Source: a virus. From it: a DNA stretch of 64,000 bases. Shown piece after piece: positions 15,501 to 64,000 of the stretch; position 1 is the stretch's first letter, and each line of letters begins with the position of its first letter. The DNA lies in the IMG/VR virus record IMGVR_UViG_3300045988_132927, positions 13,484 through 77,483 of that record; one strand, 5' to 3'. Under the pieces are notes generated by a model. It ran no database searches, was not told the DNA's origin, and worked only from the letters and a program-made list of their open reading frames with translations. Position numbers and translations under genes: made by a program.

Positions 15501-15566
15501 ATCACGCCCAACATGAATGACAAGTTTAGTAAGTTGAACGATTTTTTGCAGAAAATTTATGGCTGA
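12507..15566 (+). CDS. large hypothetical virion protein (1019 aa), GTG start overlapping the previous stop (TAGTG)
   Basis: long ORF, translational coupling. Confidence 0.55.
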   Translation: MASQYSILRQYAPYVSPYNIDLVKDVMMYKQQKVDAAREKIYTQVDYLMGQEIDKPEARAYMEDKMSGVIANINQKFKGVDLSSDGVTRAIQGEISSVLDDTVINAIAGTKEGKRVMKEIESIKQNHPELYSPINEWHALDPYYKWRSDGKAGSRLGGLHYSPYVDYTKEINKLVSDFRKNNEGKKIQTTEYDVKGNPTGGIIEVNVDELTDSQIRNFVSANLSENMRNQMRIEASYMAATNPVFSNPDLVSQYIGSYVERYDRHIGALEAKKKSVGDNKDIIDRIDSQIQEAKNQKAEAKREADMIIASSDPVAAANFVVTNNLFDKMTDAWRYDNTSFERKKDDLYFARLAEDRAQQKFLTDNAKSMVEISLAKEQLAQAKIETEYMRTYGSKMGTESSSGGTRGAGGVGVPMAPMDGPTAINSGTGKIGSVNLANIPYEQLTSSSTERRANLLKLYNSLSPTDRSNIVAASYEEEKTDPGLYANMTPEERIYSYLKNNGGQKNGYFGQGNNRLSEAYDALLLSDSKANGATKAINNITDYQIDNIVTKKNKDIISKVRNAKFMKGNSFINLTDTDDKAGAFLLATAITTGVSDAVGFREYMMDPSRGIDILSAISPSLGAKVSAGKLGKNISDAITSENNGSSTGTLALINGMKKLNGDPDFNISDYMTIDKDGDIDLKDYQEGEPLTITQLRYAEKNSRVSDMIAGQMQDEIKMSVSPDQISDKLSQYHYLDSYKRYNWNADSPEKSLQKAQFRRLSGYMAGKVNNLDPTAINAINMDAEIDNGTVRRFLTAQVGSGKNSYVTERVEITNDELLKAGIDPSVEERNYPVDGYKSSFGTCDFVDTGKKEGYSYDKYLIRNGLPRLASKADVKNDLYDIVKVHGSYLKPEEMNVVKALVDNFIDMSDNISVQLEGMDDRGSREVAVNFYDKRTKNSKNPALLFSDFVPLDPGNDEYADYWNSIHQKCPQYFFVKYVKEAVQERLDQMRDPYMRGINITPNMNDKFSKLNDFLQKIYG

Positions 15567-18500
15567 CAATAATATAGATAGATATAATCCTGCTGCTAAA
15601 ACCACTTACGAAGATGTGGCAAGGCAAAGAAAATTAGCCGAAGAAGAGAATTATACTCCGGCTACACTACCAGAGACGACAACGCCTCTGGTTCCTAATT
15701 ATATGCCTGGTGAAGGTGTGTATGCCCAACCTAAATTTCCGGATTACGCATCAAGGATAGCTGCTGCCGAATACGAAGAACCGTATATAGCCAAGGAGAT
15801 AAGCAACAGCTACTCGGAGGCACTGGCTCGTAACAGCTACAGGGGGGCTACACCTGCCCCGCCGCCTCTTAATCCCTATGGACCAAAGGTAAGTATCCGT
15901 GAAAGTCATCAGATGGGTAATGATGGGGTATGGCGTACAAAATATCCCAACTATATTCCGGGTATAAACAATGAGGATTATTATGCCAGGAGACAGAGCG
16001 GATGGAGTAAGTTTTGGAATGGTGTAGGCAAATTCGCTTTAAAGTCTGCATTGTACGGTGCACAAGGAGTTGTGTCATTGCCTGACAAACTTATCAATAT
16101 GGCATCTGAGGGAAGTTATAAAGCTGCGTTAAACACTAACATAGATAAGTTTGTAGGTGATCTTGACCAGCAAATAGACATGCTTCTTCCTCATTATTAC
16201 AAGAAAGAGGTAGAAGATTATAATTTTGGTCAGAAGCTTTTTAAGGATACCGGTAATTTCTTATGGAATGATGTCCTTGGTAATGGTATGTCTTTTACCG
16301 TAGGAGCCATGATATCAGCGTACATGACCGGAGGACTTGGAGTTGGATCATTGGGCAATATAGGTGCTAAATTAGGTGGAAGAATCGGAGCTAAGTTAGC
16401 AGCAAGGCAGGCTGCCAATAGGGGCATAGGAAGCCTTAAAGGTGTGTTTAACGACTATGTAAGAAAAGGAGTTGCTACCGGAAGAAATGTAGGGGAGGCG
16501 GCTAAGACCATGACGTTGTTGGCTACCAGTGCCGGATTCGAGTCATCGGTTGAAGCAAATTCTTTTATGAAGCAATCTGAGTCTGATTTCAAGGATTATT
16601 ATCGTAAGATTTATGGTCGTGATCCCAATGCAGAGGAAATGGCTGTTTTTCGTAATTCTAATGCTGATGTAGGTAGTGCTATATTTGCCGCCAATATGGG
16701 TATAGTAGGATTATCTAACTGGCTTCTTTTTGGTAAGTATATAGGGTTAGGAGGCAAGGCTATACCAGGGTTGGAAAAGAAGCTCAACAAGCATTTATTT
16801 GGATTAGGGACGGAAGTTGCGAAGCCGGGAGAGATGGCTATTAAAATAACCAATCCCAATATAGGACAAAAGATAGCAGGCAATGTTTTCAATATCATGA
16901 AAAGGCCAGTGTCCGAAGGCTTATGGGAAGAAGGATCTCAAGGTGCTGTTCAGAATACGGCTGAGGAATATGTTAAGTCAAGATATGATAATGTAGCCAT
17001 GAACGGAGCCGTTGATGTTCTTGATGCTATTTCTGAAGGATTTAAAAAGCAATATACGTCTAAAGAAGGATGGACTGAAATAGGAATCGGTGCTATTATC
17101 GGTTCTTTGTTTGGTATGAGGGAAGGCTTCTTTGGGGTTAAAGAGTATAGCAATAGTCAGATCTTGCTGGAAAGGCAAGTGAATGAATACAACAAAGCAT
17201 CTTCTAATCTTAACACGGCGGCTTTGAATACGTTGAAAAAATCAATGAGTTTAGGGCCTCAAGTTCGTTCCGATGCCCAGTCTATGACTGGCAAGGAGCT
17301 TGATGATGCTATGTTTGAAAAGATGTCTATTGACAACCAAATGGGAACCTTAGAGGATTCGGCTGAAAATTTCTGGCAGATGATTGATATGATGCCTATT
17401 TCGGAAATAGCCGAAGCTAATGGAATGTCTTTGGAAGAGGCAAAGAAATACAAGGATTCTATTATTGATAATTATAACAATCGTCTTTCGGATTTCAGAT
17501 CTGCCCAGAGTTTTGCCGAAGATCTTATAGGTGATGACTCTAAGATTGAATTTAGAAAATACGTGGCTCGTAATGCCTTCCTTGGTCTTCAATCAGAATC
17601 AAGAATGAAAGACATAGCTTCTGTCATAGAAACGCTTTCAGGACAGCCTCGCGTGGCAGATGCGCTAAGTACGTTCTCCCGGCTGTCGGACAGAGCAAGG
17701 GAGCGGGCGATGGCTATCCGTGGCATACGGTCAAGGATAGAAGAACTTGAATCCGAAATAGAAGATCTTGCTACCCGCCCTCGTAACGTAGAAGGGAAAG
17801 ATCCACAAGCTGAATCCATACAACGAAAAACCAAAGAATTGGAAAGCCTTAGAACCAATTATAATAATTCGTTGTCTGAGTTATCAACGTTAATAGGAAA
17901 AGAGTTTTCGATAGAAGAGCTGGTAAGTAAAACCGAATCTGTTTTATCTTCTCCTCTTTCTCCCATAAGTTCACAAGATGTGATAGAAGCCTATGATACG
18001 CTTGTGGCTTTTGATGATTATTTTAATGTAAAATCAAGACAGGAAAAGAAGTTTACAGCCAAAGACAAAGCCATGAGATCCTTGGTAAATGAATACCGAA
18101 GGAGTTTGATGGACTATAGGAATATGAATAACTTCTTGTCTAAGATGCTTGATAAAAGATTCTTAGCTGAGGAAAATAGGGGATTTTCAAAAGCGCTGTC
18201 TTCTCTATGGTCTACTCCTTATAAAGGGGATGACAAGGTTCCTGATTTTGCAGAGCCTAATAAAGTTGGTGAATATGACACTGATGAGGTAGTAGATCAA
18301 GCTGTGTCAGAAGGTAAGATTTCGGAAGACGAAGCTTGGACTATCAAGGCTTTTATGCATGCTCTTGATAAAGTAAGGGAAGATAGGATGAAGGAAGCAG
18401 AAGATGATATAAAAGAGTCACCGCTTACGGAGTCTGTATCGGATGAAGATTATGAGGCTGCTATGGATAATCCTATTATGGTTCCGGCCGTAAGGCAGTC

Positions 18501-21500
18501 TATAATTGATAAACTATATACAGGTAATGCCGATCTTCTTACTGCGAGAGAAAAAGATGTGTATGATAAATACAAACAAGATTTTGATGATTATGTATCG
18601 TCTTTGGGTGACAGTCCTGTTAATCTCATAAAATCATTATCTGAGAAGGCTGATAGGCTTACAAGTCCGAGATCTGTGTATGAGGATAATAAAGCTATTA
18701 TTGATATGGCTAAATCCAATTTAGAACCAGATCAAAGGAAGGAACTTGATGATGCTATTTCTTCGTATGTTGATATAATGAACAGACGGGATAAAGGGGA
18801 GAAGGTTGACGAAGATAAGCTTGCCGATTCTGTATTTACCATAGAAGATCTTGGCCAGGTTGGAAACATCACAGATCTCCTTCCTTATATCGAACAAAAC
18901 AGGATTATTGATAAAGGTCGTATTTCCGAATCTACGTTAAGTAATTTTGGGGAGGATGATACCAATATAGATTCTCTTGTAAATGAGTTAGATGAATCCG
19001 ATAATACGCCTGGAGCTAACATAGATAGTGCCCAAAATCCAGAGACGTTGATGGTTAGAAGAATATCCAACGATGGCAACGAAAGGTATGAAATTGCGGG
19101 TCTTAGAGCCGATAAATTTATATCTTCTATAAAATCATTGGTTCCTATTCAAATAAGCTCTGAAACGAACGCTAATGGCACTAAAAGGTATTCTCTTAAC
19201 ATAGGTGGAGAAACGGCTACTATAATTGAACTGCCTTATCATGCGAGATGGTCTATAGACAAAGAATCGGCTCGTGTTCTTAACCGTTACACAGACGTGT
19301 CTATTCAGGACGTGGGTAATTCCTATTCTTTGGTTTATAAGCGTCTTGATTCAGATGAATTGGTTCCGTACAGAACGGGTGTCGGATTCGGAGAGAATGA
19401 GGTAGATAAAATAGATCAGGAAGCATTATCTTCTTTGAAAAAAGGAGATAAGGTTAATCTCGAAATAGATGTAAATGATACTTATAATCAGTCTCTTTTT
19501 GCCGAATACAATGATGCTGTTCAGTCCGGCGATAAAAAAAGAATAGAATCTGCTGAGAATAAACTGGTGTCCAATATGGTTATCAAGGTCATGAGTGGGA
19601 ACAGATTCGTTTCTGTTGTAAAAGCTGATACAGGAGGCATAGATGGTATAAGTAAAATAAGAAGAACGGCTTTTAACAAGTGGAAGAAGGACGCCGGCCG
19701 GTCGGCTACCATCGGCGTCGGCACGCATGTTGTTGCCCAGACCCTTCCCGGAAGACCGGTGTTTAACATGAAGGTGAACGGTCAAGGATATGGCCAGATA
19801 GAAAATCTCCCTATTACCGAAAAAGGTGCTGAAAAAGTATCTGATGTTGGATATGTATTAAATGGCAAAGTCGTGCTTAAGAACGGATCTAAATACACAG
19901 GCTTCCCATTTGCTTATTCTATATTAAATGACAAGGGGAATAATTACAAAAATGTAAGAGTTCCGGTAGTCGTCATCAAAGGTAAAAACGGTCTTAATTA
20001 TCTTTTCCCAGTTAGCCTACGTTCTGTAGAATCAGAGGAAGGGCAGAAATGGATGTCTTTTATAGATATGCTGCTTGAATCTGGTGATTCTGAATTGCTA
20101 CAGATGGGTCAAGATGACATACAAGATCTTAATGCGTATCTAACCAAGTTAGGTCTTGATCCAGCTTCGTATCAAGTATCGTATTTGAATCCTATTTCAG
20201 GTCTTAGAAAAGCTCGTGAGGCTATAGAAAAATTATCTACGGTTCCTGATGTTGTTAAGTGGGTAGAAGATGAAAGCAGGAATGTGAAAGACATTGTGAC
20301 GTCTGAAGTAGAATCTGGAATAGATTTCGAAGGTGAGATGTTTGTCGCTCCTAAGATCAGGATTCAGTTTGGCAAATCATCTTCCAGACCTAAATCGCTT
20401 ATAGAGGATGATCTTCCTTTCTCTGATGAGGGTAAGACCGTTACTTCTAAGGTAGAAGATGTGGAAGTTTATGAAGAGGAAATGCCAGAGGAAGGGGCTG
20501 CCCGGGAGACTCAGCCGGTGCCATTAGCTCAGCCGGCTCCTGCGGCACAAGCTACGCAGTCTTTACCTGGCAAGAAGCGTACCTCCAGGAAAAACTTCTC
20601 TCTTATGTTAAACGAAATAGAATCTCATATAGAAAAAGAAGGATTGCCGTCTTATGCTAATATTTTTGATTTTATAGCAAGGAAGATTGTAGGAGGTGAT
20701 TTGAGGTTTCTTCGTGAGAGAGGTAATCCTAAAAGCCTTAAGGAAGAAATGGGATTAGAACCTAAAGGAACAGTAGGTGATAAAATATCCACTCCTTCCA
20801 GTAAAGGCGGTAAGACCTTAGAAGAATACGTTTCTTGGCTTCGTTCTCAAACAGATCAGGTGGTGGTTGATTATGTTGGGCCAAGATCTGATGAACAAAT
20901 TATATCAGAGTTGAAAAACTTTTTGAAATATATTAATTTTGTTCCAAGTAAGGCTTTAAATTATTCTCTTAGAGTCAATGGCATGGATACCCTAAAAGAA
21001 TATGGCACAAAAGAGGAAGTAGAAAAAATGGAATCTGATATCAATAGTTTGGTTTCTAAAGTTTTGCCTACGGTGGATAATAAAACTGTAGAAGATGTTT
21101 CTACTGCAATAAAATCAAACAACTTGCCTGCCATATGGGAGCCAGTGGAAAGCCTTGATATGACAAACGAGGAAAAAATAGAGTTTTTGAATAACGTAGC
21201 AGATTTCCTTAGCGGCATTCCAGAGTATGATGCTGTTGTGGAATCTATAGAGTCAGAATCAGATAATATTTTAAATAATGAGAAAGAAGGAAGCACAGGA
21301 GGTGGTACAGCACAGGCTAATGAAGAAGGCGGTGCAGTACGCGCTGAGGAAGATGGCGATAAAAAGGGAGATGGAGAAGGCGAAGGACAATCCAGAACAA
21401 ATGTCGAAGTTGAAGGAAATGTCGAATTACCTGGATCTGAAGAAGGAAGAGTAGATAACTATAGAAAGAACGGAGATAAGTTCTCTGATATTTCCGAAGT

Positions 21501-22230
21501 TACTTTATGGCTACTTAGAAGGGCTGCCGGCATAACTTCTATCCCGGAAGGAGAAGAGGTTTATGTAGAGGGAGATGAGGTTAATAGTATTATGACCGAT
21601 ATGGAATCAAGGTACGGGATAGACACCATCAACCACTCACATACGACTAAGGCTATAAGGGATCTTAACGGTGTGTCAGGTTATAAAGTAGAATACGGCT
21701 TAACCTTTTTGACATACGATCCTTTTATTAGAATATCCAATCCAAGGAAAGAATCTAAGGCTGAGAAAGACGAGCCTCGTATATCCGAAGAACCGCTTAC
21801 TCACATATCAAGGGTGACAACTCCTTATTTCCTGTACGGCGGTGATGAAGCATATTCATCTGTTCCGGCTAAGGTAGAACCTATACCGGAGAAGATAATG
21901 GGTCGTAATGGTATTAAATTTGGTATGAGTGTAGTCGAGCTAACCAAATTAGGGTACAAAAAAGCTGGTGGAAACTGGATATATAAATTCTATATGAACT
22001 CAGGTGTGTATGATTTGTATAATATCAGTACCGGTGAAGCGTTTAGGGCAAAACCGGATCTTGGAGTTAAGATAAGTTCCAGCGCATTCATCCGTTCTTT
22101 ATCTCAATCTGGTAGAAAAATACAAAATATGATGAGTAACATGAGCCAGGAAGAGATAGATAGGAATAAGAATCTTGTAGAAGGTTCTGATAATTCGGAT
22201 TCGATAAATGAGTTAAACAAGGAGTGTTGA
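15559..22230 (+). CDS. giant virion protein (2223 aa); Gly-rich hydrophobic segment near N-terminus suggests tape-measure or ejection-type protein
   Basis: ATG overlaps the previous stop (ATGGCTGA); segment GNGMSFTVGAMISAYMTGGLGVGSLGNIGAKLGGRIGAKLAARQAANRGIG. Confidence 0.6.
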   Translation: MADNNIDRYNPAAKTTYEDVARQRKLAEEENYTPATLPETTTPLVPNYMPGEGVYAQPKFPDYASRIAAAEYEEPYIAKEISNSYSEALARNSYRGATPAPPPLNPYGPKVSIRESHQMGNDGVWRTKYPNYIPGINNEDYYARRQSGWSKFWNGVGKFALKSALYGAQGVVSLPDKLINMASEGSYKAALNTNIDKFVGDLDQQIDMLLPHYYKKEVEDYNFGQKLFKDTGNFLWNDVLGNGMSFTVGAMISAYMTGGLGVGSLGNIGAKLGGRIGAKLAARQAANRGIGSLKGVFNDYVRKGVATGRNVGEAAKTMTLLATSAGFESSVEANSFMKQSESDFKDYYRKIYGRDPNAEEMAVFRNSNADVGSAIFAANMGIVGLSNWLLFGKYIGLGGKAIPGLEKKLNKHLFGLGTEVAKPGEMAIKITNPNIGQKIAGNVFNIMKRPVSEGLWEEGSQGAVQNTAEEYVKSRYDNVAMNGAVDVLDAISEGFKKQYTSKEGWTEIGIGAIIGSLFGMREGFFGVKEYSNSQILLERQVNEYNKASSNLNTAALNTLKKSMSLGPQVRSDAQSMTGKELDDAMFEKMSIDNQMGTLEDSAENFWQMIDMMPISEIAEANGMSLEEAKKYKDSIIDNYNNRLSDFRSAQSFAEDLIGDDSKIEFRKYVARNAFLGLQSESRMKDIASVIETLSGQPRVADALSTFSRLSDRARERAMAIRGIRSRIEELESEIEDLATRPRNVEGKDPQAESIQRKTKELESLRTNYNNSLSELSTLIGKEFSIEELVSKTESVLSSPLSPISSQDVIEAYDTLVAFDDYFNVKSRQEKKFTAKDKAMRSLVNEYRRSLMDYRNMNNFLSKMLDKRFLAEENRGFSKALSSLWSTPYKGDDKVPDFAEPNKVGEYDTDEVVDQAVSEGKISEDEAWTIKAFMHALDKVREDRMKEAEDDIKESPLTESVSDEDYEAAMDNPIMVPAVRQSIIDKLYTGNADLLTAREKDVYDKYKQDFDDYVSSLGDSPVNLIKSLSEKADRLTSPRSVYEDNKAIIDMAKSNLEPDQRKELDDAISSYVDIMNRRDKGEKVDEDKLADSVFTIEDLGQVGNITDLLPYIEQNRIIDKGRISESTLSNFGEDDTNIDSLVNELDESDNTPGANIDSAQNPETLMVRRISNDGNERYEIAGLRADKFISSIKSLVPIQISSETNANGTKRYSLNIGGETATIIELPYHARWSIDKESARVLNRYTDVSIQDVGNSYSLVYKRLDSDELVPYRTGVGFGENEVDKIDQEALSSLKKGDKVNLEIDVNDTYNQSLFAEYNDAVQSGDKKRIESAENKLVSNMVIKVMSGNRFVSVVKADTGGIDGISKIRRTAFNKWKKDAGRSATIGVGTHVVAQTLPGRPVFNMKVNGQGYGQIENLPITEKGAEKVSDVGYVLNGKVVLKNGSKYTGFPFAYSILNDKGNNYKNVRVPVVVIKGKNGLNYLFPVSLRSVESEEGQKWMSFIDMLLESGDSELLQMGQDDIQDLNAYLTKLGLDPASYQVSYLNPISGLRKAREAIEKLSTVPDVVKWVEDESRNVKDIVTSEVESGIDFEGEMFVAPKIRIQFGKSSSRPKSLIEDDLPFSDEGKTVTSKVEDVEVYEEEMPEEGAARETQPVPLAQPAPAAQATQSLPGKKRTSRKNFSLMLNEIESHIEKEGLPSYANIFDFIARKIVGGDLRFLRERGNPKSLKEEMGLEPKGTVGDKISTPSSKGGKTLEEYVSWLRSQTDQVVVDYVGPRSDEQIISELKNFLKYINFVPSKALNYSLRVNGMDTLKEYGTKEEVEKMESDINSLVSKVLPTVDNKTVEDVSTAIKSNNLPAIWEPVESLDMTNEEKIEFLNNVADFLSGIPEYDAVVESIESESDNILNNEKEGSTGGGTAQANEEGGAVRAEEDGDKKGDGEGEGQSRTNVEVEGNVELPGSEEGRVDNYRKNGDKFSDISEVTLWLLRRAAGITSIPEGEEVYVEGDEVNSIMTDMESRYGIDTINHSHTTKAIRDLNGVSGYKVEYGLTFLTYDPFIRISNPRKESKAEKDEPRISEEPLTHISRVTTPYFLYGGDEAYSSVPAKVEPIPEKIMGRNGIKFGMSVVELTKLGYKKAGGNWIYKFYMNSGVYDLYNISTGEAFRAKPDLGVKISSSAFIRSLSQSGRKIQNMMSNMSQEEIDRNKNLVEGSDNSDSINELNKEC

Positions 22231-22244
22231 GTATGAGAAGGAGA
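22199..22244 (+). repeat. 46-nt junction repeat copy A (3' end of giant gene plus RBS plus ATGAGAAGGAGA start of the first small ORF starting MRRR(F/Y))
   Basis: near-identical (2 mismatches) to 22816-22861. Confidence 0.7.
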
Positions 22245-22763
22245 TTTTTTAATGCTGCGGATAATTTCGTGGGAGGATGTTATAATAAGTTATCCAATGA
22301 AGATATAAAAAGGCTTGGAGGGAAAAGACCTTATGTATGTCAGTTTAATAAAATTCATATACATATAGGGCCTGTATTAAAAGATCATGATTCCGATGTC
22401 AGTGACATAGTGTTTAATAGTGACTGGAATTATGGTGGTTATGAATCTACGGTTTATCATCATAGCAATAATGGTATTTTTATATTAGGTGGAAATAAAA
22501 TTGGTAATATAGAAGACCATATGCAAGATCTAACATATTGGTACGAATATGATCCGAGTCTTAATGAAAATTATTGTTATTATTATTATGAAGCTGATAA
22601 TAGTGGAAATGTTATTAAGTTGAATGGTGAGTTTAGTGATGTTAGCACTGTTTTTAACATTCCCAGTTTGAAAGTTACCACTCTTCGTGATGGCAGTTTG
22701 AGTTTTCCAGAGATTTATATAGAAGGAGTTTGGGATCCGTCATTGTATAAGTCGATTTTATAG
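22233..22763 (+). CDS. small beta-rich protein, MRRRF-family paralog 1 (176 aa)
   Basis: AAGGAG RBS 7 nt upstream of ATG 22233; N-terminus MRRRFF. Confidence 0.55.
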   Translation: MRRRFFNAADNFVGGCYNKLSNEDIKRLGGKRPYVCQFNKIHIHIGPVLKDHDSDVSDIVFNSDWNYGGYESTVYHHSNNGIFILGGNKIGNIEDHMQDLTYWYEYDPSLNENYCYYYYEADNSGNVIKLNGEFSDVSTVFNIPSLKVTTLRDGSLSFPEIYIEGVWDPSLYKSIL

Positions 22764-22789
22764 TTAATTTTGAAAAAAAGTTAATTATT

Positions 22790-22816
22790 ATGGGTGCCAA
22801 ATGTCAGATAGAAAAA
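22790..22816 (+). repeat. 27-nt repeat copying the 5' end of gene 23471 (atgggtgCcaaatgtcagatagaaaaa)
   Basis: 26/27 identity to 23471-23497. Confidence 0.65.
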
Positions 22817-22861
22817 TTCGATAAATGAGTTAAATAAGGAGTGTTAAGTATGAGAAGGAGA
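22816..22861 (+). repeat. 46-nt junction repeat copy B
   Basis: duplicate of 22199-22244. Confidence 0.7.
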
Positions 22862-23428
22862 TACGAAGATGTTTCAAGTCTTGTTCAGTATCAGTTGAAG
22901 ACCAATCAGCAGGGGAATATAGAGGTTTATGTTGATGACAGGTTTGTTGGAAACGTAAGTGAAGGAGTCTGTAATTGGAAGGATATTGAATACAAGAGTA
23001 AGGTTACTATATCTTTGAAAGGAGTCGAGGATAAGGCTAAAACCTCAAGTAAAAGAGTCGGTCCTTATTGTCACATTTATAGCATATTTGGAGGAAATGA
23101 ATCTTATCATGCAGGTCCGGATAGTAATATAAAAAAGAGTCCGGTTACCACCTTTATAATGTATTGTTATAAAAATGGGGATATTACAACTACCACTACT
23201 TATACTAAAAATTTATCTGGAACTCTTCAGATAGGTAAAACACAATTGACTATCAATTACAAACAAAGTAAAAGTCAGTCTTTTTCTGGTGGTGATAAAG
23301 ATTATGTAACATCCGTATCTGATTTCCCTTTTGTTACTGGTCCAGGAGATAATAGTGTTGAGTTCGAAGGAGAGGGAAGATTAATAGTTGAAACAAAGGC
23401 TTCGCATTATGAAATAGAAGTTTCATAA
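22850..23428 (+). CDS. small beta-rich protein, MRRRY paralog 2 (192 aa)
   Basis: same RBS and first four codons as paralog 1, remainder unrelated. Confidence 0.55.
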   Translation: MRRRYEDVSSLVQYQLKTNQQGNIEVYVDDRFVGNVSEGVCNWKDIEYKSKVTISLKGVEDKAKTSSKRVGPYCHIYSIFGGNESYHAGPDSNIKKSPVTTFIMYCYKNGDITTTTTYTKNLSGTLQIGKTQLTINYKQSKSQSFSGGDKDYVTSVSDFPFVTGPGDNSVEFEGEGRLIVETKASHYEIEVS

Positions 23429-23470
23429 TTTCTATTTTTTATAATACCTTTGTCCAAAATATTTATCACT

Positions 23471-25729
23471 ATGGGTGTCAAATGTCAGATAGAAAAAAAG
23501 GAAAATGAAATAAAACGGGTTAAGGCTCCTAACGGGGAGCCTTCCGTTCTTTACGAAAGTGCCTTAAAATTATTAGGAAATAGCGAACGAGCTCTTCAGG
23601 TATGGGCTAAGGCTTACACTCCTGGTTTTTTGTCGTATTACGGTCATTGGAATAACCCGGCTCCAGGGGAGATGTTTAATACCGATCCCAATGGCGAACC
23701 TCTTTTAGAAGACGTGCTGTCGTATATGAAGCGTCAGACTTATTTTGCTGATCCTTTAACGGCTCAGGACATTAAGGATGTAAGGGATTTCCTTTTGTCT
23801 ACTCATTATTTTTTCAATGCGTCTTCATTGTCTAATGCTATTCTCTTCGATTTTTATGTAGATGGCAGTTTGATACTGAATGAGAAGAATTTAAGGAGAT
23901 CCGGTTTGTATGATGAAACAGAGATAAGTCGTATTTTATCCGATCCTTCTGTTTTAAATGAGGTTTCGACTTCCATGAGAAAGTTAATAGATTATTCTAT
24001 TAACGAACATGATAGGGAAAAGGATAATTATTTTATGTCTGTTGACTATCAGTATGGTCCTATTGTTTACAAGGAGGGAGTGTTTAACCAATTTGGTAAA
24101 AAAGTGCCATATAATCCTTCTGAGCTTTATTGGGCTATGGGCAAAACAGTAGCCGGCATAAAAAACTTTTCTGAATTTTCATCTGCTTTTGAATCATTGA
24201 GGGATTCATACCCTGAACTGGTTGAAAAATTTGTCTCTGATAAAGAATTTGCCGAATCTATGTTTGATGAGTTCTCATCTATGGAAAAGATTCCGGTAAT
24301 AAACATAGAAGGGGATGATATGGTAGAAGGGAAGAGAAGGTCTTTGTCTAAGCTACAAGACTTGTCTTATTACAATTCAGGTAAAATAGAGTTCTTAAGA
24401 GCTCGTATATCAGCTTATTTACATAGGTCAAATGCCGACACCGAATCCGATTTAAGAAGCATGATATGGGATATAGAAGAGGCTTGTACGTGGTTTGGCA
24501 TAGATATAATAGGGACATCGGAAACTTATGATGGCACAGAAGAATCTTTGAATAAGATAGATAATTTGATGCTGGATCTTGATATTTATGTGGCCAGACA
24601 TAATGATGTAAATTATGCTCCAACGCTGGCATCTTCTATCGATGATGTTCTTGGTGATAGTACAGATTTTTATTATGGATCATTACCGGAGGATATGGAT
24701 AATTTGAATATTGTTTATTCTGAATCCGATATAGATCCGGTAGAAGCATTTGAGAAACACTCATTGCTTAAGGTAGATGGCAACCTATATCAAAGGATCA
24801 ACAAAGATGATCTTAACGAGATGTATCAAATATCAACAGTGTTAGCCAAGCACAACCTAACTTACTTTCCTGCTAAAATATATCCTGAATCTTGTTTTAA
24901 GAACGGCGTTTTGGATAAAGAGAAAGTACGGAACGTAGATGATAATACACTCATGGATTCTATTAAAAAATACGTCAGATCGTTCATGGATCCTCAGAAC
25001 ACAGAGGACATGATAATGACCAGGATGGCGTTCGGGCACTGGGTGGTACCTCCTGTTTCTTACGTGGATGTGGATCGGGAGTATAGTCGATATATGAACA
25101 AAAAACAAGATAGCGAAAACCCATTATCCTTATTCGATTTATACCAATCTTACCTTGACAACAAACTCCATAAAACAAAATTATATGATAATGCCTATAA
25201 GTATCTTGACTTCAAACCTGGTCCATCTTTGGGCCTTATTTCTGATGATCCTGATATTTTGAAATCAATAGAATTATCTTTATCTGGAAAAGACAGGTTG
25301 ATGTTGTTTGATTATAGCATGACCAGCACCGACCCTTCTTTATCAGAATTGTTTTATTTGGAGAAGTATGACTCTTCGTATGCCGGGAATGATTTTGAAC
25401 ACTATTTTTACACCAGGCACCCGTATTTGTTAAAAGAAAAATCGGGCCCTAATATCGTAGAGCAAGATGGTGTTATAACAGCCGAAGGTATTTATGATAA
25501 TTTTATAAGAGTAGGTAATAAGATATGGTCTAAAGTAAGCGAGAGTAGTTCCGGCTCTATCTACCAAAATCTGACAGGAACCGAATCAGAGGTAAAATAC
25601 GATTCTACTCAGAAGGCTAAGACGGTAGAAACCGATTACGCTCCATACCAAAACAGATCTGGCTTGACGCAAGACATGACCGTAAGCAAGCCTGAATTGG
25701 ATGATCTTAACAAATTAGAATGCAGGTAA
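23471..25729 (+). CDS. hypothetical protein (752 aa from ATG 23471)
   Basis: -7 box TACCTTTG at 23445-23452 precedes ATG 23471; the track's 23450 start is TTG. Confidence 0.55.
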   Translation: MGVKCQIEKKENEIKRVKAPNGEPSVLYESALKLLGNSERALQVWAKAYTPGFLSYYGHWNNPAPGEMFNTDPNGEPLLEDVLSYMKRQTYFADPLTAQDIKDVRDFLLSTHYFFNASSLSNAILFDFYVDGSLILNEKNLRRSGLYDETEISRILSDPSVLNEVSTSMRKLIDYSINEHDREKDNYFMSVDYQYGPIVYKEGVFNQFGKKVPYNPSELYWAMGKTVAGIKNFSEFSSAFESLRDSYPELVEKFVSDKEFAESMFDEFSSMEKIPVINIEGDDMVEGKRRSLSKLQDLSYYNSGKIEFLRARISAYLHRSNADTESDLRSMIWDIEEACTWFGIDIIGTSETYDGTEESLNKIDNLMLDLDIYVARHNDVNYAPTLASSIDDVLGDSTDFYYGSLPEDMDNLNIVYSESDIDPVEAFEKHSLLKVDGNLYQRINKDDLNEMYQISTVLAKHNLTYFPAKIYPESCFKNGVLDKEKVRNVDDNTLMDSIKKYVRSFMDPQNTEDMIMTRMAFGHWVVPPVSYVDVDREYSRYMNKKQDSENPLSLFDLYQSYLDNKLHKTKLYDNAYKYLDFKPGPSLGLISDDPDILKSIELSLSGKDRLMLFDYSMTSTDPSLSELFYLEKYDSSYAGNDFEHYFYTRHPYLLKEKSGPNIVEQDGVITAEGIYDNFIRVGNKIWSKVSESSSGSIYQNLTGTESEVKYDSTQKAKTVETDYAPYQNRSGLTQDMTVSKPELDDLNKLECR

Positions 25730-32565: not shown

Positions 32566-33756
32566 ATGAAACTTGTTGAAAGACATATAGTTAAAGACAA
32601 CTGGTTTGAGGATATATGCCTCAAATCTGGTTTGTTGTACAATTATGTTCTTTACAACATTCGTCAAGGAGTCTTTTCTGGTAACTACTTAAAGGAGTTT
32701 GATTTATCAAACAAACTTTGCAAAGAAAACCAATTTGATTTCAGGAATTTACCTAATCATGTTTCACAGCAGGTGATTAAACAGGTATTTAAAAACATAA
32801 AATCCTGGATGAGATTAAAGAAAGATTTTGAAAAGAATCCTTCGAAATACGGTAATCATCGTCCTCATCTTCCTTCGTATAAGAAGGGCAAGAAACAAAA
32901 CATGGTTGTTTTTACTAACTGTGATTGTAGGATAAAGGATGATGGTTATATCCATTTTGTCAAAAACACAATTAAACCGATCAAAACAAATGTAAAGAAA
33001 GATGAATTAAAACAAGTTAGAATCATACCTCAAGCCACCTGTTATGTAGTAGAGGTAGTTTATGAAAGAAAGGAAATTGATCTTGGTTTAGATAAAGACA
33101 ATTTTCTTTCGATTGATTTAGGATTGAATAATTTATGTTCATGTATTAGCAATGTAGGATTAATTCCTTTCATTGTAAACGGACGGATTATGAAATCATT
33201 TAATCAATGGTACAATAAGAAGAAAGCTAAGTTGATGTCTTTTGTTGGTGATAGAGGATCTTCAAATAGGATAAGAAGAATCACTTTGTTTAGAAATTGT
33301 TGGATAGAAGACAAGTTGCATAAGATAAGCAGATATATTGTCAACTTCTGTAGATCAAACAACATAGGAACAATCATCATCGGATTAAATAAGGAATGGA
33401 AACAGGAAATCAATATTGGTAGGCGAAATAACCAACATTTTGTTTCTATTCCTCATTCAAAGTTAATAGATAAGATTGTTTACAAAGCAAAGTTATTAGG
33501 AATCAATGTTGTTATTCATGAAGAATCCTATACATCAAAGATAGATCATCTTGCTTTTGAACCTCTAAAGAAACAGGAATCCTACTTAGGAAAAAGAAAG
33601 AAACGTGGATTGTTTCAAAGTTCAATTGGAAAACTGATCAATGCAGATATTAATGGATCAATTGGAATAGCAAGAAAAGTAATTGGTGATTCTTTTATTG
33701 GAAAGATAATCGATAGTGGATTTGTGTTTAATCCAATTAGAGTAAATACTTTGTGA
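32566..33756 (+). CDS. tnpB: TnpB-like (IS200/IS605 OrfB family) RuvC nuclease homolog, compact (396 aa), lacking the canonical CxxC..CxxC zinc finger
   Basis: RuvC-I SIDLGLNN; region YKAKLLGINVVIHEESYTSKID aligns with TnpB YKxxxxGxxVVxVxxxxTSKxC; RuvC-III NADINGSIGIARK (cf. DADVNAAINI); no Cys between RuvC-II and RuvC-III. Confidence 0.7.
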   Translation: MKLVERHIVKDNWFEDICLKSGLLYNYVLYNIRQGVFSGNYLKEFDLSNKLCKENQFDFRNLPNHVSQQVIKQVFKNIKSWMRLKKDFEKNPSKYGNHRPHLPSYKKGKKQNMVVFTNCDCRIKDDGYIHFVKNTIKPIKTNVKKDELKQVRIIPQATCYVVEVVYERKEIDLGLDKDNFLSIDLGLNNLCSCISNVGLIPFIVNGRIMKSFNQWYNKKKAKLMSFVGDRGSSNRIRRITLFRNCWIEDKLHKISRYIVNFCRSNNIGTIIIGLNKEWKQEINIGRRNNQHFVSIPHSKLIDKIVYKAKLLGINVVIHEESYTSKIDHLAFEPLKKQESYLGKRKKRGLFQSSIGKLINADINGSIGIARKVIGDSFIGKIIDSGFVFNPIRVNTL

Positions 33757-35168: not shown

Positions 35169-38100
35169 ATGACATCAACGTGTATTATTAAAAGAGATAA
35201 TAAAAAGAAAGTTGTTTCTGTCTCTACCAGATCAGGGGACAGGTCTATGTTGTTTGATAAAATAGCATCTATTCCTCTTATGGAGAACAGAGAACGGGCT
35301 ACTACTGTTTTTAAAACCGTATTTTCTAATAAGTTCTTAAAGGCTTTTGGCGACTGGAGAAAGAGAGTGCCTATCAACAAACCGGCTTATAATAAGGTAA
35401 AATCCAACATCGATCTTATTCCGGAAGCCTATAGAGAAAGGGTACTGGATAAGGCTTCTAAGATGAGTAATCCTGTTCTTGTGTCAAAATCAGATGCACC
35501 TTATGAAATCCAAGAATCGGGCTTTGGATTTTACAGCCAAGATCTGGGTGATAATATTATATTGGTGGATGCTATGGTTCCGTCAAGTATTTCCGTACCG
35601 GAAGAACCAGGAATAGACGCCGGGCAGTATCTACAAGATACCATATCTTCAGACTTCACTCCCGTATCTATGGTACAGGATAAGGGTGTTAATTATATGG
35701 TTATAAAAGACGGTCTTAAGATATTTAGCCCAGAGGAGTTACCAGAAACAGATTCTAATCCTGTGGGTGTAACGTATCAGACCGGAGAGCCTCGTTTGTT
35801 TTTCATGAACGATCGTAGTCAATTATTTGAAGATTACGGAGAAGCTCTTCGCTCTGGCGGGAATGATATTAGAATAGGATTCTTATCAGGCACCGTTCAA
35901 GAATCTGCCGTGGATGGCGTGGCAGACATTACTTACAAGGCTGGAAAGTATGTTCTTAATAATCCAAAATCTTTTATACCGGTCATGACCGCTTCTGCTT
36001 CCACTTCTTTATCAACAAAAGGTGGTATAATTAACTACCTTATAAAGAAAGGTCTTTTGTCCGGATCTAAGATATTCGATCCTGAAACAAGAAGCTATTA
36101 TCTTACAGGAGAAGGTCATACAGGACAAATTAGACTTTTCAATTCAGCCTTATCCTACACTGAGCTCCGTAATCATTTTGGTTCCGATGTTTCCATGAAC
36201 GACCAAGGTATGATAACCATAAGCTCGTTGGATAACAGTAAGGTAACGATGAGACTCGCCACCGGAGGAACGGAAAGGATTAGTAGGGAACAGATAAAGA
36301 ACGATCTCAAGTCAGGAAGATACAATGAATTGGACGCCAAGTACGATCATTTTGATGCGCTTGTAGTTTCATTCATATTAGAAGACAACGATCTTTATGC
36401 TGACACTAAAGCTAAGATCGTATCAGATTATAGCAGGCAGGAACGTGATCAACGAAATTCTATTGTCGAGATACTGAAAACTCTTGGCGTTAGTGTCATA
36501 GGTATGACCGACTATATAGAGAAGTACCAAACCAAATACGGGCATGAACCTTCTGCTAAGGCATTGGCGGATATTGCCAATAACGTAATAGCAGTTGGTG
36601 AAGATGCTACTTTATCTGATTTAGTAGAAGAAACAGCCCACTTCCTTGTAGAGGCATACAGAGATCAGAATGCTGTTGAGGCTGTTCTGCAAGATGTAGA
36701 AGGTACGGAAGAGTGGAACCAGTATGCAGGTCAGTATTATAATACATACGGTAAGGTATATGAAGGAGCTGAGCTTGATAATGCTGTTAGGAGAGAAATT
36801 CTTGGAAAGATCCTCGCCAGGGAGATGCAGACCGGCACAGCACAGGCGCCGGTAGAGCCCACCTCCTTCCTGGGGCGCGTCCGGCAGCTTCTCTCTGGAA
36901 TAGTAAACTGGCTTAAATCAGCTTTATCAACCCAAAGACAAGATTTGAATAACGTTATTAAAAACATTCGTGATCTTGCCATTACTGACATAGATAAAGG
37001 ATTTGACACTTCTCTGTTAAAGGATAATGACTTTACATTATACTCCCTTTCTTCTATGAACAAGAACAAGTTTCTTGAGTCTAAGATCAGATCGCTAAGA
37101 AAAACATTAAGAGACTTACGTCAGATAAGCTCTGATAGGGCTGTAACTACGTCTATGACCCTTGCTCAGCTTAAGACCATAGAAGATAAGATAAATAAAG
37201 TAGAGACCGAGATAGACAAGAATGAGATGGCGGCTGCCATGAACAGCATGATCTCCACAGCCGAAGCTCAGGTCAGATACTTAAGCAATGTGGTGAACAC
37301 CATCCTTCATGGTGATACCAAAGACGGTAAGCTTCACTTCAATACCAATGATCGAAAGAACGTAGATATTATCAACAATCAGGTTCTTCCGATCATGAAC
37401 GATCTTCGAGGATATATCCGTAACAGAAGTACCGAATTTGATGAACGTGAAAAGCAGGATTATACAAATAGGATCAATACCGTCATTGCCGACATCAATG
37501 GTATTCAGTCTGATATTAAATCAGTACAAGACCTTGATGAAAGTACGTTGCTTGATAAGTTAATGAACGAACTTCATGTGCCGGCAGATAAGGTAAAGAG
37601 AGTAAAAGAATTTTTTGACAAGGTTCAACACGATGTTTCTTGGATAAGTAGGTGGTTCGGTATATTAGAGCATTCTTCCAGTCCGTTCAATAACGCTCTT
37701 GGAGCTATGATTGCCAAAGACAATTACAATGCGATGGTGAATGCCCAGCCCGCCATATCCGACTTCCTGACATATGCGAAAAAGCATGGTTTTAACAAAT
37801 CTGAATTTGAAAAACTGCTTCAGAAAGTAGACGGCAAAACTTCTAATTACCTTCGTAGTGCTCTTGATATGGCTAAATACGATCGTAATAAGAAGCTGGC
37901 GCAGATGCGAGCGTTTGCGACTGCCATGAACATAGAGATATCAGAAGAAGAAATTGGTGATGTGGTTGACAATAACCGTAATTACGTATTTAAAAGAGAA
38001 GCAGTTGACAAGGATGGAAATACGGTTACTGAAAACGCTAAATTCAAACCATCGTCTGATAGAGTTAATACCGATATTTTTACCATCGAGCAGGAAAAGA

Positions 38101-41100
38101 TTTATACAGAACAGATGGAAAAGTGGGATGCTGAAAATTCGGAACTGGAATTTAGCGAAAGTCATGCCACAAGAATGGAATCCATATACAAAAAGGCTGA
38201 AGAAGAATTAGGGCATCCGGTTTCTCAAACAACCAAAGAATACCTTAATGCTCTATCCAGGCAAAAACGGATATTGAGGCAGCCTTTTATTGATAGCGGT
38301 GGTAATTTTGATGAGGTTGCCTATTTTAAAAGCAGCAATTACGAAGAAGAAGGACTGCTTCGTAAACAACGTAAGGAAGCAGCTTCAGAATACATATATG
38401 TAGGAACCAGGAGAGTGGAAAAAACCGGCGACCAACTTAAGATGGCCAAAGAAATACAAGCTATAAATGAAGTTTGGAGAAAGGAATCAAATAATGTTAC
38501 TAATGCCGTATCAGAATCGTTTTTGCAAAAATTGAGAGCGATTCAGAGCGAATCAGGAGGGGAAGCTGCATTGAGAACGCTTATGTTGGGAGGTCACCTG
38601 TCGTTCAATGATCGGTTTTGGAATGAAGTAGAATCGGAACAGTCGGCGCGTACCGAATCAAATAACAAGGCTTCGTATCTTAAAATGGCGCATGATATCA
38701 TTAGTTCTACGACAAGTGATAGAGATGCGACTGACGTGGATTCGATTGTGAAAGATATAGAAAAAAATAAGGCCATTATCAAGGAAATAATCGGAAACAA
38801 CCGAGATGTGGCTGATATCGGAGAAATTAACGAAGCGACATTTACCTCATCTGAAAGAGATGCTTTTAGGGCCGCATCTGAAGCTATTGAAGCTGATTAC
38901 GCTATCTTAATAGATTATGCTAAGATGGTGGGTCTTGAAGATATTGATAAGTACCTTACTAAAAGCAGTAAGGCCGAAAACGAAGTAAATCAGTCTTATT
39001 TAAATGCTCTTGCTGACTCCAAGGAAGTGGAATGGAAGTTCGTACAACGTCATACTACAGCGAAGAAAGCAAAAAGGATTCAGGCTTTAAGGGATAAGCT
39101 GTTTAAGGCTGCTGATAACCGATATCTGTTTACCGTATCTGAAACCAACTACCTGTCAGAAAAGCTTGGTATAAGCAAAGAATTAGACGGTAGAGATTTC
39201 AGGAATGCTGTTAATGCTAAGATGGCCAGCTTGTTTTTAAATAATACAAGAGAAGAGGGCATAGAAGAGACCAATGCTATTGTTAATGAATTTGCCAGGG
39301 GCCAGGTCTTTTCCTACTATAAACGCATGGCGCCTACCGGATATGCGGCTATGATCGACAAAATAGGTCGAGGTGAGATAGATGTGGCGCAGATGGTTAA
39401 GGACGTGCAAAACGGTACATCCACCCAAGATTATGGCATGAACATATCGTACCTGTCTTTCGATCCTGCAAGGGCATGGGTGGCTGAATCTGAAGCCGAA
39501 AATAACGGCCGTAATCCTGATTATGTAAAAGATCATGGGTATGGTCATCGAATGCCTAAGAAAAGCCTGTATCGTGATGAATCTTATTTCAATGACTTTG
39601 GTATCAAGTATGATGCTGACGGTAATGAAGTTGCTACTAAAAACGTAGAGCAGTGGAATATGATTCAAAAACTCAAGGAAATAAAAAGACAATCCCTTGA
39701 TCTATACAAAGAGCAGAGCCCGAACCTGTATGCTATTCCACAGATATCAAAACAAGATATAGAACGTATAGAAGGATTGGGTATTAACTTCAAAAATACG
39801 GTTCGTAATTTTGTATCAGATCTGTGCCTGGACAGAGTAGACGATTCTTTATACGGTAAAACCAGGCAAGGAGAAGTGTATGATCCGGAAGACAGACTTA
39901 GGTCTATACCTAAATACTACATATATGAATTGGAGAACCAAGATGATGTATCTCACGATTTTGGCTACTCTTATTCGATGCTTATGATGCAGTCATCGTT
40001 ATACAACGAAAAGCAGAAGTCTATAGAGCTCGCTCAAGGACTGGAGCAGATGTTACTGAATAAACAATTTGAAGGTGGTAAAAAGGCTGAAGCAACCCAA
40101 GCATATCAGATGTTCAGGGACTTCTTCAACGATCATTATTATGGCATTAGGATGAACACCAAAAAACTTACGGTGAACATCGGAGGATATACGGTAGACC
40201 TTACAAGAATTATGATGGCTGTTGAAAGATTTATGTCGGTCATGAACTTGGCACTGTCCCCGTTTGTGGCAGCTACCGGCGCCTTAACAGGTCATATCAA
40301 CCTCATCATGGAATCTGCCGTAGGACAGTATATAAGTAAAGATTCCCTTAAATACGCATCGGCTGAATTTTCACGCCTTGCTCCATCTTGTATAGCAGAA
40401 ACCGGAGACATAGATAGGAAAAGCAAATTATATGTCATAGGTGAGAGAATGGGGATATTCAATATCCGAAATCGTATGTATGGTGCCGGATACAATAGAG
40501 TGGCCAGGACCTTAATGCGTTCACCTATGTATGCTTTTATGGAAATCCTGAACTACCCTCTTGATCCGCAGGTTATGATTGCTACTATGGACAATGTTCG
40601 TCATTACAAAGGTCGGTTCTACACGTTCCAAGATTTCAAGATGGAAAAAGAACGCAATAAGGAACAGAGTACCATAAAAAGAGAATGGAATGCATTAAAA
40701 GATCGTACTTTATGGAGTATGGTAGACGTCGTGGATGGGAAGGTGGTTGTAAAGCCAGGATCGGGTGTTACTGTTGAGGAAGTTGAAACCCAGATGGCTA
40801 TAACCAGGAATCAAGTCCGTAGCTTGTCGCAGATATGTAACGGATCTTTGAATGAAGAAAACCGAACTGCCGCATCGCGCAACTGGATAGCCAGGTTCAT
40901 GACCGCCCACCGAGGATGGTTGGTGCTGGCGGCTCAACGTCTGTGGAAAAGACGTGGCTTCAATTTCCAAACAATGCAAGAAGAGGAAGGGTTGTCAATT
41001 ACGTTAAAGAATATGATAGCCAAAACATTTAGCCTGGCTTCCGAGTCTGGTATGAAAAACATCATAGATGCCTGGAACGAAAATAAAGACAATATGAATG

Positions 41101-41805: not shown

Positions 41806-42423
41806 ATGAGACGAAGATTTCAAATAGGGATGGGGGTAAATCCCTCGCTTATAATCAATAAAGGCATATACATCCAACATGTAGATGGAGGATTATATAC
41901 AAAAGAAAATTGGTCTAATAAAGGATATTCCAATGATCTATGCAATGGAATAGCTCTTGTAGATAAAGTGTGTTTTGTTATAGCCACCGAATATATTGGC
42001 ACATTTCGTTGGGGTAAGGATGGAGAAATAGACAATATATTTGCACAAGATAGTTCTCATATTGGAACTATTAAAAAGGATTATTGGGGGCGTGAAAATC
42101 AGAATGCGTATCTTGAATATGATACCAGTAATACAGATTACGCTTTTAATAAAGCTAATAGCTATTTATTTAAAAATGGTCAAAATGGATATGTAGGTGG
42201 CGCCGGAGAGTTTTTTTTGATATCATTGTATGCTAATGAAATAAACGAATGCCTTTTAATGGTAGGAGGTACGATAATGAGTAATAGAATGTGGACATCC
42301 ACTCGAAATACAAAATTTACCTATTCGTGGTATTATGATATAAACATCCAAGGAGATCATTTGGATACAGGTTCAAGGGGTAGTTCACATTATGTCCGCC
42401 CTTTTACTGAATTAATTTTATGA
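41806..42423 (+). CDS. MRRRF-family paralog 3; lectin-like, DUF1566-like C-terminus (…SSHYVRPF)
   Basis: ATGAGACGAAGATTT start; the C-terminal segment MWTSTRNTKFTYSWYYDINIQGDHLDTGSRGSSHYVRPF resembles the DUF1566 ending (yWSST…yvRcV). Confidence 0.5.
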   Translation: MRRRFQIGMGVNPSLIINKGIYIQHVDGGLYTKENWSNKGYSNDLCNGIALVDKVCFVIATEYIGTFRWGKDGEIDNIFAQDSSHIGTIKKDYWGRENQNAYLEYDTSNTDYAFNKANSYLFKNGQNGYVGGAGEFFLISLYANEINECLLMVGGTIMSNRMWTSTRNTKFTYSWYYDINIQGDHLDTGSRGSSHYVRPFTELIL

Positions 42424-42427
42424 AATT

Positions 42428-42877
42428 ATGAGAAGAAGATTTGAAAATATTAAGACAGTTGCCGGCGTCAAGATCCCTGTTTTTGCTTGTTCGATTTCGG
42501 CCCCTACAACCACATGGCGAAATCCTGTACCTATTCTTGGTTGTAGATACCGATCTAATGGAGTAACTATGGCGGCTTCCTATGTTTTAGATGAAATTAA
42601 TAATAGCAAGGTATGTACGATGGGCGGTAATCCTATAAGTTGTACGATATCAAATTCTGGACAATATATCCAGGCTTACTTTAATGAAGGACAGGTAACA
42701 GGTGATATTATATTACAGTTTACGATTGGAGACGTTTTTTATTATTTCTTTATTACAGAAGGATCCAATCAAGTACCTCAACTGAAATTAAGTCCAAGTA
42801 CTCACCTTATTCATTCAATATATAAGATAAGTACAATTGGCAGCTTTGTCCCTATTGATACCTATGTGGAATTATAA
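42428..42877 (+). CDS. MRRRF-family paralog 4
   Basis: ATGAGAAGAAGATTT start, 4 nt after previous stop. Confidence 0.5.
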   Translation: MRRRFENIKTVAGVKIPVFACSISAPTTTWRNPVPILGCRYRSNGVTMAASYVLDEINNSKVCTMGGNPISCTISNSGQYIQAYFNEGQVTGDIILQFTIGDVFYYFFITEGSNQVPQLKLSPSTHLIHSIYKISTIGSFVPIDTYVEL

Positions 42878-63836: not shown

Positions 63837-64000
63837 CTCAGTTGCACCTTCTATGGTTCTAAAACCGATGCCGATATCTTTTAACTTGACACACTCCCAT
63901 CGCTAAAGCAAATGGGATTCTTGGATACAAACGCAAGAAACCCCGATATTAATATCGCTGGAATTACTCTTGCTCTCCAATTCGGAAATGCCCTTCCGAA

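Follow-up and report, generated by a model that had tools for sequence, protein, structure and literature searches.

Between a giant gene (G1) and a gene for a 752-residue protein (D), the viral DNA analysed here carries a slot, or bay, that holds either of two small open reading frames, ORF1 or ORF2, as alternatives, and the sequence under study contains both in tandem. This sequence, hereafter the window, is a stretch of 64,000 nucleotides (IMG/VR record IMGVR_UViG_3300045988_132927, positions 13,484 to 77,483). We propose that the tandem was produced by one illegitimate join and then spread by homologous reshuffling, a reading to which we assign a probability of roughly 0.85. Judged by sequence similarity, the window phage is an epsilon crAss-like phage of the crAssE-Sib lineage: the sole close record in the phage collection was crAssE-Sib (OR575929), with ~93% identity over the 86% of a 4-kb query that aligned. 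crAssE-Sib is an epsilon crAss-like phage of the human gut with a 151-kb genome, for which the genus Epsilonunovirus has been proposed (PMC11054128). Epsilon crAss-like phages are abundant and uncultured in the virome of the human gut, and for the majority of their genes no function is assigned; the locus described here shows a recombination joint, both parents and reshuffled descendants within one natural population.

The bay, its borders and its repeats are the following.

15559-22230, plus strand: giant gene G1, left border of the bay; 2223 aa, match to PHROG 32390; the crAssE-Sib orthologue is annotated 'structural protein'.
22199-22245, plus strand: repeat A; the final 32 nt of G1, AAGGAG and the stop among them, followed by 2 nt and by the start of ORF1, ATGAGAAGGAGAT (MRRR plus 1 nt).
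22233-22763, plus strand: ORF1 cassette; 176 aa, MRRRF start, ORFan; the commoner allele in the population, absent from crAssE-Sib.
22790-22828, plus strand: B' remnant; the first 27 nt of D (22790-22816), forming a dead 12-codon reading frame (MGAKCQIEKFDK and a stop) that runs into A'.
22816-22862, plus strand: repeat A'; a copy of the G1 end and translation start, through which ORF2 shares the upstream context and the MRRR start of ORF1.
22850-23428, plus strand: ORF2 cassette; 192 aa, MRRRY start, ORFan; the sole gene of the slot in crAssE-Sib.
23471-25729, plus strand: gene D, right border of the bay; 752 aa, no assigned function; its first 27 nt are repeat B (23471-23497).

Repeats A and A' agree at 45 of 47 nt, and B' (22790-22816) agrees with B (23471-23497) at 26 of 27 nt. 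Neither the A nor the B pattern found a match at up to three mismatches in 100 dinucleotide-preserving shuffles of the window. An original prediction, made from the letters of the window, had placed both repeat pairs here, and we recovered them at those positions, far beyond chance. The prediction had described A as the last 27 nt of the giant gene followed by a ribosome-binding site; the duplication stands and the AAGGAG motif does lie in the repeat, but A takes in the last 32 nt of G1 including the stop, and the motif sits within the last codons of the giant gene rather than after its end. The two small ORFs do begin MRRR(F/Y) and have unrelated bodies, as had been noticed (best BLASTP E = 0.81 for ORF1 against ORF2). 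B' and A' are contiguous and share a single base (A at 22816), which identifies 22816 as a novel joint. B' matches D no further than nucleotide 27 of D. Upstream, the 34 nt 5' of B' and of B, in the two 3' untranslated regions (UTRs), are weakly alike (61-nt family, 77%).

Alignment with crAssE-Sib, whose slot order is G1-ORF2-D, defines the extra unit. Over window positions 22100-23560 the two sequences match column for column; the exceptions are one mismatch in A' and a clean gap of 617 bp (22199-22815). Identity runs to 22198 and resumes at 22816. The window thus has an additional unit, ORF1 plus B'.

For a population view, 268 related IMG/VR loci were fetched by way of ORF1, ORF2 and an exact 24-nt pattern at the G1 end. 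The sample obtained with the G1-end pattern is unbiased as to cassette and comprises 120 IMG/VR contigs, 94 of them with a complete slot; slots were sorted into classes by script, and all fetched loci pooled gave 144 unique slot sequences. Among the 94 complete slots, 61 contained ORF1 only, 23 ORF2 only, four ORF1-ORF2 and six ORF2-ORF1. The pooled unique slots comprised 79 with ORF1 only, 48 with ORF2 only, eight of each tandem order, and one single ORF2 interrupted by an insertion sequence (IS). ORF1 and ORF2 share the borders A and B and therefore behave as alternative alleles; they are alternative alleles of one slot. No third allele was present in the slots of the fetched IMG/VR loci from the close population. 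The predicted arrangement, in which conserved flanks bracket a swappable cassette, is borne out: the same flanking genes enclose ORF1, ORF2, both in either order, none, or other genes, and the related genomes that we looked at do not carry one fixed gene at this position.

The tandem slots are built from the same alleles, since their cassette copies are 98-100% identical to the single-cassette versions. Homoduplications (ORF1-ORF1 or ORF2-ORF2) with the window joint were found in none of the 144 unique slots; slots that appeared to be of this kind proved to be single genes split by insertion elements. The region recombines freely, the G1-end variant, the cassette type and the D variant occurring in many mixed combinations. 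Divergence classes of D (23471-24400) at about 75%, 91% and 96% identity each mix with either cassette. Insertion elements split or partly delete ORF1 or ORF2 in several contigs, indicating that each ORF is individually dispensable. In addition, one 115-aa protein (P0037) fuses residues 1-63 of ORF1 to the last ~52 residues of ORF2, a chimera that points to a deletion inside an ORF1-ORF2 tandem.

The window joint, GATAGAAAAA fused to TTCGATAAATG, is the same in eight unique IMG/VR slot sequences and five metagenome contigs, and all ORF1-ORF2 contigs carry it exactly (GATAGAAAAA fused to TTCGATAAATGAG). All ORF2-ORF1 contigs in IMG/VR have a second joint, GATAGAAAAA fused to TAAGAATCTCGTAG, in which B' is attached 77 nt before the G1 stop. 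Gapped pattern scans of IMG/VR and the metagenome collection for further joints between B' and a start region returned only these two types. In both, B' stops 22-24 nt from TATG, truncating the copied D start, and the A-side breakpoints lie at -34 and -77, that is, 43 nt apart. Microhomology amounts to the one common A (22816) at the window joint and to 2-4 nt at the second, which also has a nearby imperfect AGATAG(G/A)AA. Abrupt loss of similarity at the joint, homology of a few nucleotides and the presence of both parental arrangements in relatives together mark a novel joint. The joint has also acquired changes of its own, namely T to C in the B' of the window and an extra A in one variant. 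Moreover, one metagenome contig (L363) carries the window joint with the genes in reverse, ORF2-to-ORF1 order, indicating that the joint module moved by homologous recombination through the short borders.

Based on these data, we propose that nucleotide 27 of D, in a genome of ORF1 type, became fused to a position 34 nt upstream of where ORF2 starts in a genome of ORF2 type. Such a join would have been illegitimate, with ~1 nt of microhomology, in the setting of a co-infection or a concatemer, and its product would read G1-A-ORF1-B'-A'-ORF2-B-D, with the new junction between B' and A'. We infer both the direction and the one-step nature of the join. The joint would have arisen once and been inherited thereafter, and homologous recombination via the short shared borders would later have shuffled it to other backgrounds and even into the reverse gene order. 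A' keeps the entire translation-start region, so that both genes would stay expressible; the retention of 34 nt before the start, including AAGGAG, leaves both start contexts intact and would explain why the joint survived. Because both single-cassette haplotypes are common, the tandem copies are nearly identical to them and homoduplications were not seen, a single join suffices.

The original prediction had envisaged another course, in which a single genome first gained a second, tandem copy of the segment of junction, ORF and next-gene start, and one of the two bodies was later replaced via the conserved flanks. This course ends in an identical layout, and the reversed contig L363 demonstrates that homologous exchange near the joint does happen, so replacement of one copy is mechanistically possible. 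It nonetheless requires two events where one join explains the layout, no homoduplicated intermediate is found in the 144 unique slots, and both single-allele parents are common; we therefore consider it improbable and not the best reading. The tandem might instead have been created during assembly, by stitching co-existing ORF1-type and ORF2-type strains through shared flanks, given that the two strains, each common in gut samples, have near-identical flanks. However, the joint string GATAGAAAAATTCGATAAATG occurs in neither parent, so that parental k-mers cannot yield it, and a joint that is identical in the window, the eight unique IMG/VR slots and the five contigs, which come from separate ENA/GenBank assemblies, and that has since gained its own substitutions is scarcely to be reconciled with such an artefact.

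A dedicated site-specific cassette system, such as an integron-like attC/integrase pair or a cassette-borne homing endonuclease, would account for the short conserved borders that flank each cassette and for the tandem cassette arrays in relatives. We consider it very unlikely, since ORF1, ORF2, D and G1 contain no integrase, recombinase or homing-endonuclease domain, convincing attC-like inverted repeats and RNA family matches are lacking in the region, and the differing A-side breakpoints (-34, -77) are unlike the work of a site-specific recombinase. The authors of the crAssE-Sib study likewise report no integrase (PMC11054128).

What broke B is a separate question, on which the mobile elements of the slot have a bearing. 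About 10% of slots contain TnpB-only IS200/IS605-type elements of three kinds (410, 379 and 407 aa), and the slot is an insertion hot spot. PF01385 (OrfB_IS605) and PF07282 (Cas12f1-like TNB) score above cut-offs in all three proteins and in a TnpB encoded elsewhere in the window:

32566-33756, plus strand: the window's own TnpB (IS605 OrfB-type); 396 aa, 41-44% identity to types I and III.

The 410-aa type I element sits at the D start codon, between TATG and GGTGTC, in both cassette contexts. It is complete in 16 fetched loci (L006, L007, L011, L016, L017, L022-L024, L046, L112 and L239 are among the loci with this element, and L005 has a remnant), and its right end restores the ATG of D. 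The 5' flanks are TTATG, CTATG and TTATA for type I and TTTATG and ATTATG for type II, the 3-nt ATG ambiguity blurring the exact element ends. In L007-type loci, 20 nt of ORF2-type 3' UTR stand beside the element in an ORF1 genome, which looks like co-conversion during break repair. The 379-aa and 407-aa types and other inserts of ~1.3 kb interrupt or delete cassettes (L120, L087, L137, L149, L247, L171, L362): they lie after the ORF2 stop in L120 and L087, within ORF2 in L137, together with an ORF2 deletion in L149, in place of most of ORF1 in L247 and within ORF1 in L171. At its very end (63906-63998) the window has a fragment that matches the 379-aa type in its C-terminus.

According to the rule established for the TnpB family, the guide of the omega RNA corresponds to the ~16 nt of DNA that flank the right end of the element; TnpB cuts the empty site 15-21 bp from the transposon-associated motif (TAM), and repair restores the element (PMC8612924; PMC10055086). 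The right flank of the 410-aa element is the B sequence, GGTGTCAAATGTCAGATAG, and its guide would read GGTGTCAAATGTCAGA. The joints would then be misrepairs of a TnpB cut at B, or the outcome of a re-cut of B' with deletion. It is the ending of B' at 22-24 nt from the TAM-like TATG in both joints, when the other breakpoints lie 43 nt apart, that leads us to suggest an RNA-guided cut as the cause of the break in B, made by the TnpB of an IS element aimed at exactly that site, an idea that we consider possible though doubtful. If the shared breakpoint is a TnpB cut, the locus would show how, in nature, a transposon nuclease guided by RNA remodels the gene content of a phage.

Several points weigh against these proposals. 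The haplotypes rest on assemblies, yet the joint is absent from either parent and recurs across several datasets. A two-step route, homoduplication followed by allele replacement, is a possible source of the same tandem. A 43-nt deletion in the long joint could have produced the short one, in which case the two types may not be independent, and this weakens the argument for a hot spot. Furthermore, the common breakpoint falls in an A7 run that could itself favour slippage or template switching. Specifically for the nuclease, ISDra2 cuts at most 21 bp from the TAM against the 22-24 nt retained here, the window contains no type I copy (best 41% identity), the cut position, guide and activity of this TnpB orthologue are predictions from the family rule, and the proposal draws on only two joints, possibly related by deletion. 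As to the function of ORF1 and ORF2, the proteins match no domain, and their structural models are unusable (predicted local distance difference test, pLDDT, 33 and 41.5).

ORF1 and ORF2 are real genes, as indicated by purifying selection (ratio of nonsynonymous to synonymous substitution rates, dN/dS, 0.18 over 65 distinct ORF1 alleles and 0.26 over 42 distinct ORF2 alleles). Word-indexed searches with either protein found only relatives of at least ~65% identity, many truncated, plus fragments. An exhaustive HMMER profile search with ORF1 over 1.84e9 representatives returned only its own cluster and fragments, besides one weak match to a MucBP-repeat adhesin; assignment of ORF1 to the MucBP type was rejected at an hhalign probability of 4%. 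Pfam and PHROG scans, even at E = 10, left ORF1, ORF2 and D without a match, and ORF1 and ORF2 have no recognisable receptor-binding or glycine-rich adhesin domain. AlphaFold2 was run with family alignments; the higher-scoring model, that of ORF2, is all-beta at low confidence. Promoter and terminator matches in the region showed no excess over the shuffled expectation, and an Rfam scan found no RNA family. Inside D, 51 nt past its start, lies a perfect 9-bp GC-rich hairpin (23522-23543; AAGGCTCC TAAC GGGGAGCCTT), kept in close relatives and flagged as terminator-like.

G1 is a virion structural protein. By the annotation of crAssE-Sib, the window region comes after the muzzle and tail-lysozyme genes, and in crassviruses the block past these genes encodes packaged cargo and giant proteins associated with the RNA polymerase (RNAP) (PMC10172136). 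Its synteny and size suggest that G1 may be cargo; a PDB sequence search with G1 matched nothing. G1 was also considered as a virion RNA polymerase and rejected: the DxDGD motif is present only in the neighbouring 993-aa protein, so the cargo role rests on synteny. For that neighbour, the PDB sequence search gave only a chance-level match (E = 0.28). The C-terminal region of G1 (~21459-21762) has a 304-nt indel, in-frame in scale, among population variants.

The bay can be followed into distant relatives. We listed D homologues down to 23% identity and looked at gene contexts for the groups at 70%, 53%, 47% and 43%. In three of the four groups D follows a homologue of the giant gene with zero or one gene between them; in the 53% group the giant gene lies outside the fetched DNA. 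The content of the bay at each level of D identity is as follows.

70%: empty.
53%: four tandem genes with MRRRF starts (L273, 1086-3948) of 213, 167, 238 and 294 aa, the last with Pfam Gly_rich_2.
47%: one gene of anti-repressor type in two allelic forms, KilA-N/ANT and Bro-N/ANT.
43%: one 152-aa gene with an MRRRY start.

Locus L272 is arranged otherwise than L273, its Gly_rich_2 gene, of 472 aa, lying on the opposite strand. In the 47% group, the two allelic forms (L274, 2906-3934, and L275, 2951-3934) differ in their N-terminal domains and have the ANT C-terminal half in common; in L274 a TnpB gene comes after D.

The MRRR start is confined in the window to four ORFs, namely ORF1, ORF2 and two genes of a second bay, which lies behind a second giant gene:

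35169-41591, plus strand: second giant virion gene; 2140 aa, PHROG 37651, virion structural protein.
41806-42423, plus strand: MRRRF gene, first cassette of the second bay; 205 aa, starting 214 nt past the stop of the second giant gene.
42428-42877, plus strand: MRRRF gene, second cassette of the second bay; 149 aa, starting 4 nt after the 205-aa gene.

This second bay is as polymorphic as the first. Among 80 IMG/VR relatives the gene for the 205-aa protein may be intact, truncated or missing, and the second position is filled by the 149-aa gene, by an MRRR(F/Y) gene of 245 aa unrelated to it, by other genes or by nothing; 19 of the 80 have none. The 205-aa protein had a match to Lcl_C/DUF1566 at E = 0.81, which we did not use. 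Similarly, the first 150 kb of the 151-kb crAssE-Sib genome contain four MRRR-start ORFs, all MRRR(F/Y) and each beside a giant virion gene: ORF2, the pair after the second giant gene, and a 240-aa MRRRF protein with Gly_rich_2 (63285-64007; L279, 13285-14007) encoded just upstream of a TnpB gene and the muzzle gene. A PDB sequence search with this 240-aa cassette found nothing.

Across all loci there are 186 distinct MRRR(F/Y) proteins in nine families unrelated by BLASTP, and every MRRR-start gene found lies in the virion module adjoining a giant gene. The arginine codons of the motif vary (AGA, AGG, CGT, CGA, CGG), as does the upstream DNA, which argues that the motif is preserved as protein sequence and is more than a recombination linker. 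As far as we checked, MRRR(F/Y) cassette bays beside giant virion genes, with TnpB at the border, are a new pattern; neither the literature searched nor the crAssE-Sib paper (PMC11054128) describes the MRRRF/MRRRY motif. Hypervariable accessory genes of this class can thereby be searched for by a simple signature, the MRRR(F/Y) start in the neighbourhood of a giant virion gene.

Gly_rich_2 is found only in sister cassettes (294 aa in L273, 240 aa in crAssE-Sib, 472 aa in L272), and the domain also occurs in PHROGs annotated as tail proteins; a literature search for PF21722 gave nothing relevant. This glycine-rich tail-protein domain in some sister cassettes is the sole functional hint for the cassettes. 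The original prediction had named receptor-binding or counter-defence modules as what such phage loci typically hold, and for the cassettes these would be candidate roles. Tentatively, and at somewhat less than even odds, the cassettes may be virion-associated host-interaction proteins that share MRRR(F/Y) as an N-terminal tag. A more far-reaching idea, which we think unlikely, is that MRRR(F/Y) would serve as a portable address tag that loads or docks unrelated, quickly exchanged accessory proteins into or onto the virion beside the giant cargo and muzzle proteins, in functional analogy to the T4 capsid targeting sequence, the bays being libraries of injected counter-defence or host-range factors and breaks by resident TnpB nucleases at the bay border one engine of their shuffling and stacking. 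Were the tag a virion-loading signal, it would single out the proteins that the phage injects or that set its host range, and foreign proteins could be loaded into crassvirus particles by means of it.

Known phage systems offer partial parallels. In T-even phages, the internal-protein (IP) loci encode diverse small proteins that share a capsid targeting sequence, and in T4 the proteins so tagged are taken into the head and injected as anti-defence factors (PMC3012670). The bays resemble these loci in combining unrelated small proteins with one short N-terminal peptide, at polymorphic loci in a virion gene region. We regard the T4 capsid targeting sequence as the closest apparent analogy, and not as a case of membership. 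By inspection, MRRR(F/Y) bears no resemblance to what we take to be the T4 sequence, a weak comparison. Unlike the T-even phages, the phage here is a crAss-like podovirus, with another cargo-storage system (PMC10172136), and its cassette proteins are known from their genes alone.

A further likeness is to an adhesin locus. At the T-even gp37-gp38 tail-fibre locus, recombination between conserved motifs swaps the specificity of the adhesin. Here, too, a small variable gene directly 3' of a large virion gene is exchanged via short conserved borders, and some sister cassettes have a glycine-rich tail-protein domain. Unlike gp38, ORF1 and ORF2 have neither glycine-rich motifs nor gp38 similarity, and G1 would be a hypothetical fibre at most. 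The elements at the bay border, for their part, resemble known IS200/IS605 TnpB elements in being TnpB-only, with both Pfam signatures, and may also resemble them in lying 3' of a YTATG-like motif with no obvious target duplication. They would differ from known TnpB homing in that the proposed misrepair, read from sequence, makes a tandem of phage gene cassettes.

The joint itself fits the Hendrix-type mosaicism of lambdoid and HK97-like phages, in which illegitimate recombination at gene borders is followed by homologous shuffling. As in such joints, identity breaks abruptly, with ~1-4 nt of microhomology, at gene boundaries and with the genes left intact; the parental configurations co-exist, and the modules are reassorted later by homologous recombination. 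Unlike the usual case, a single natural population supplied the parents as well as the product, the product has two alleles in heterologous tandem instead of one replacing the other, and two joints have one breakpoint in common, which coincides with an IS/TnpB target. The heterologous tandem with its preserved joint is ordinary phage mosaicism, seen with unusual clarity.

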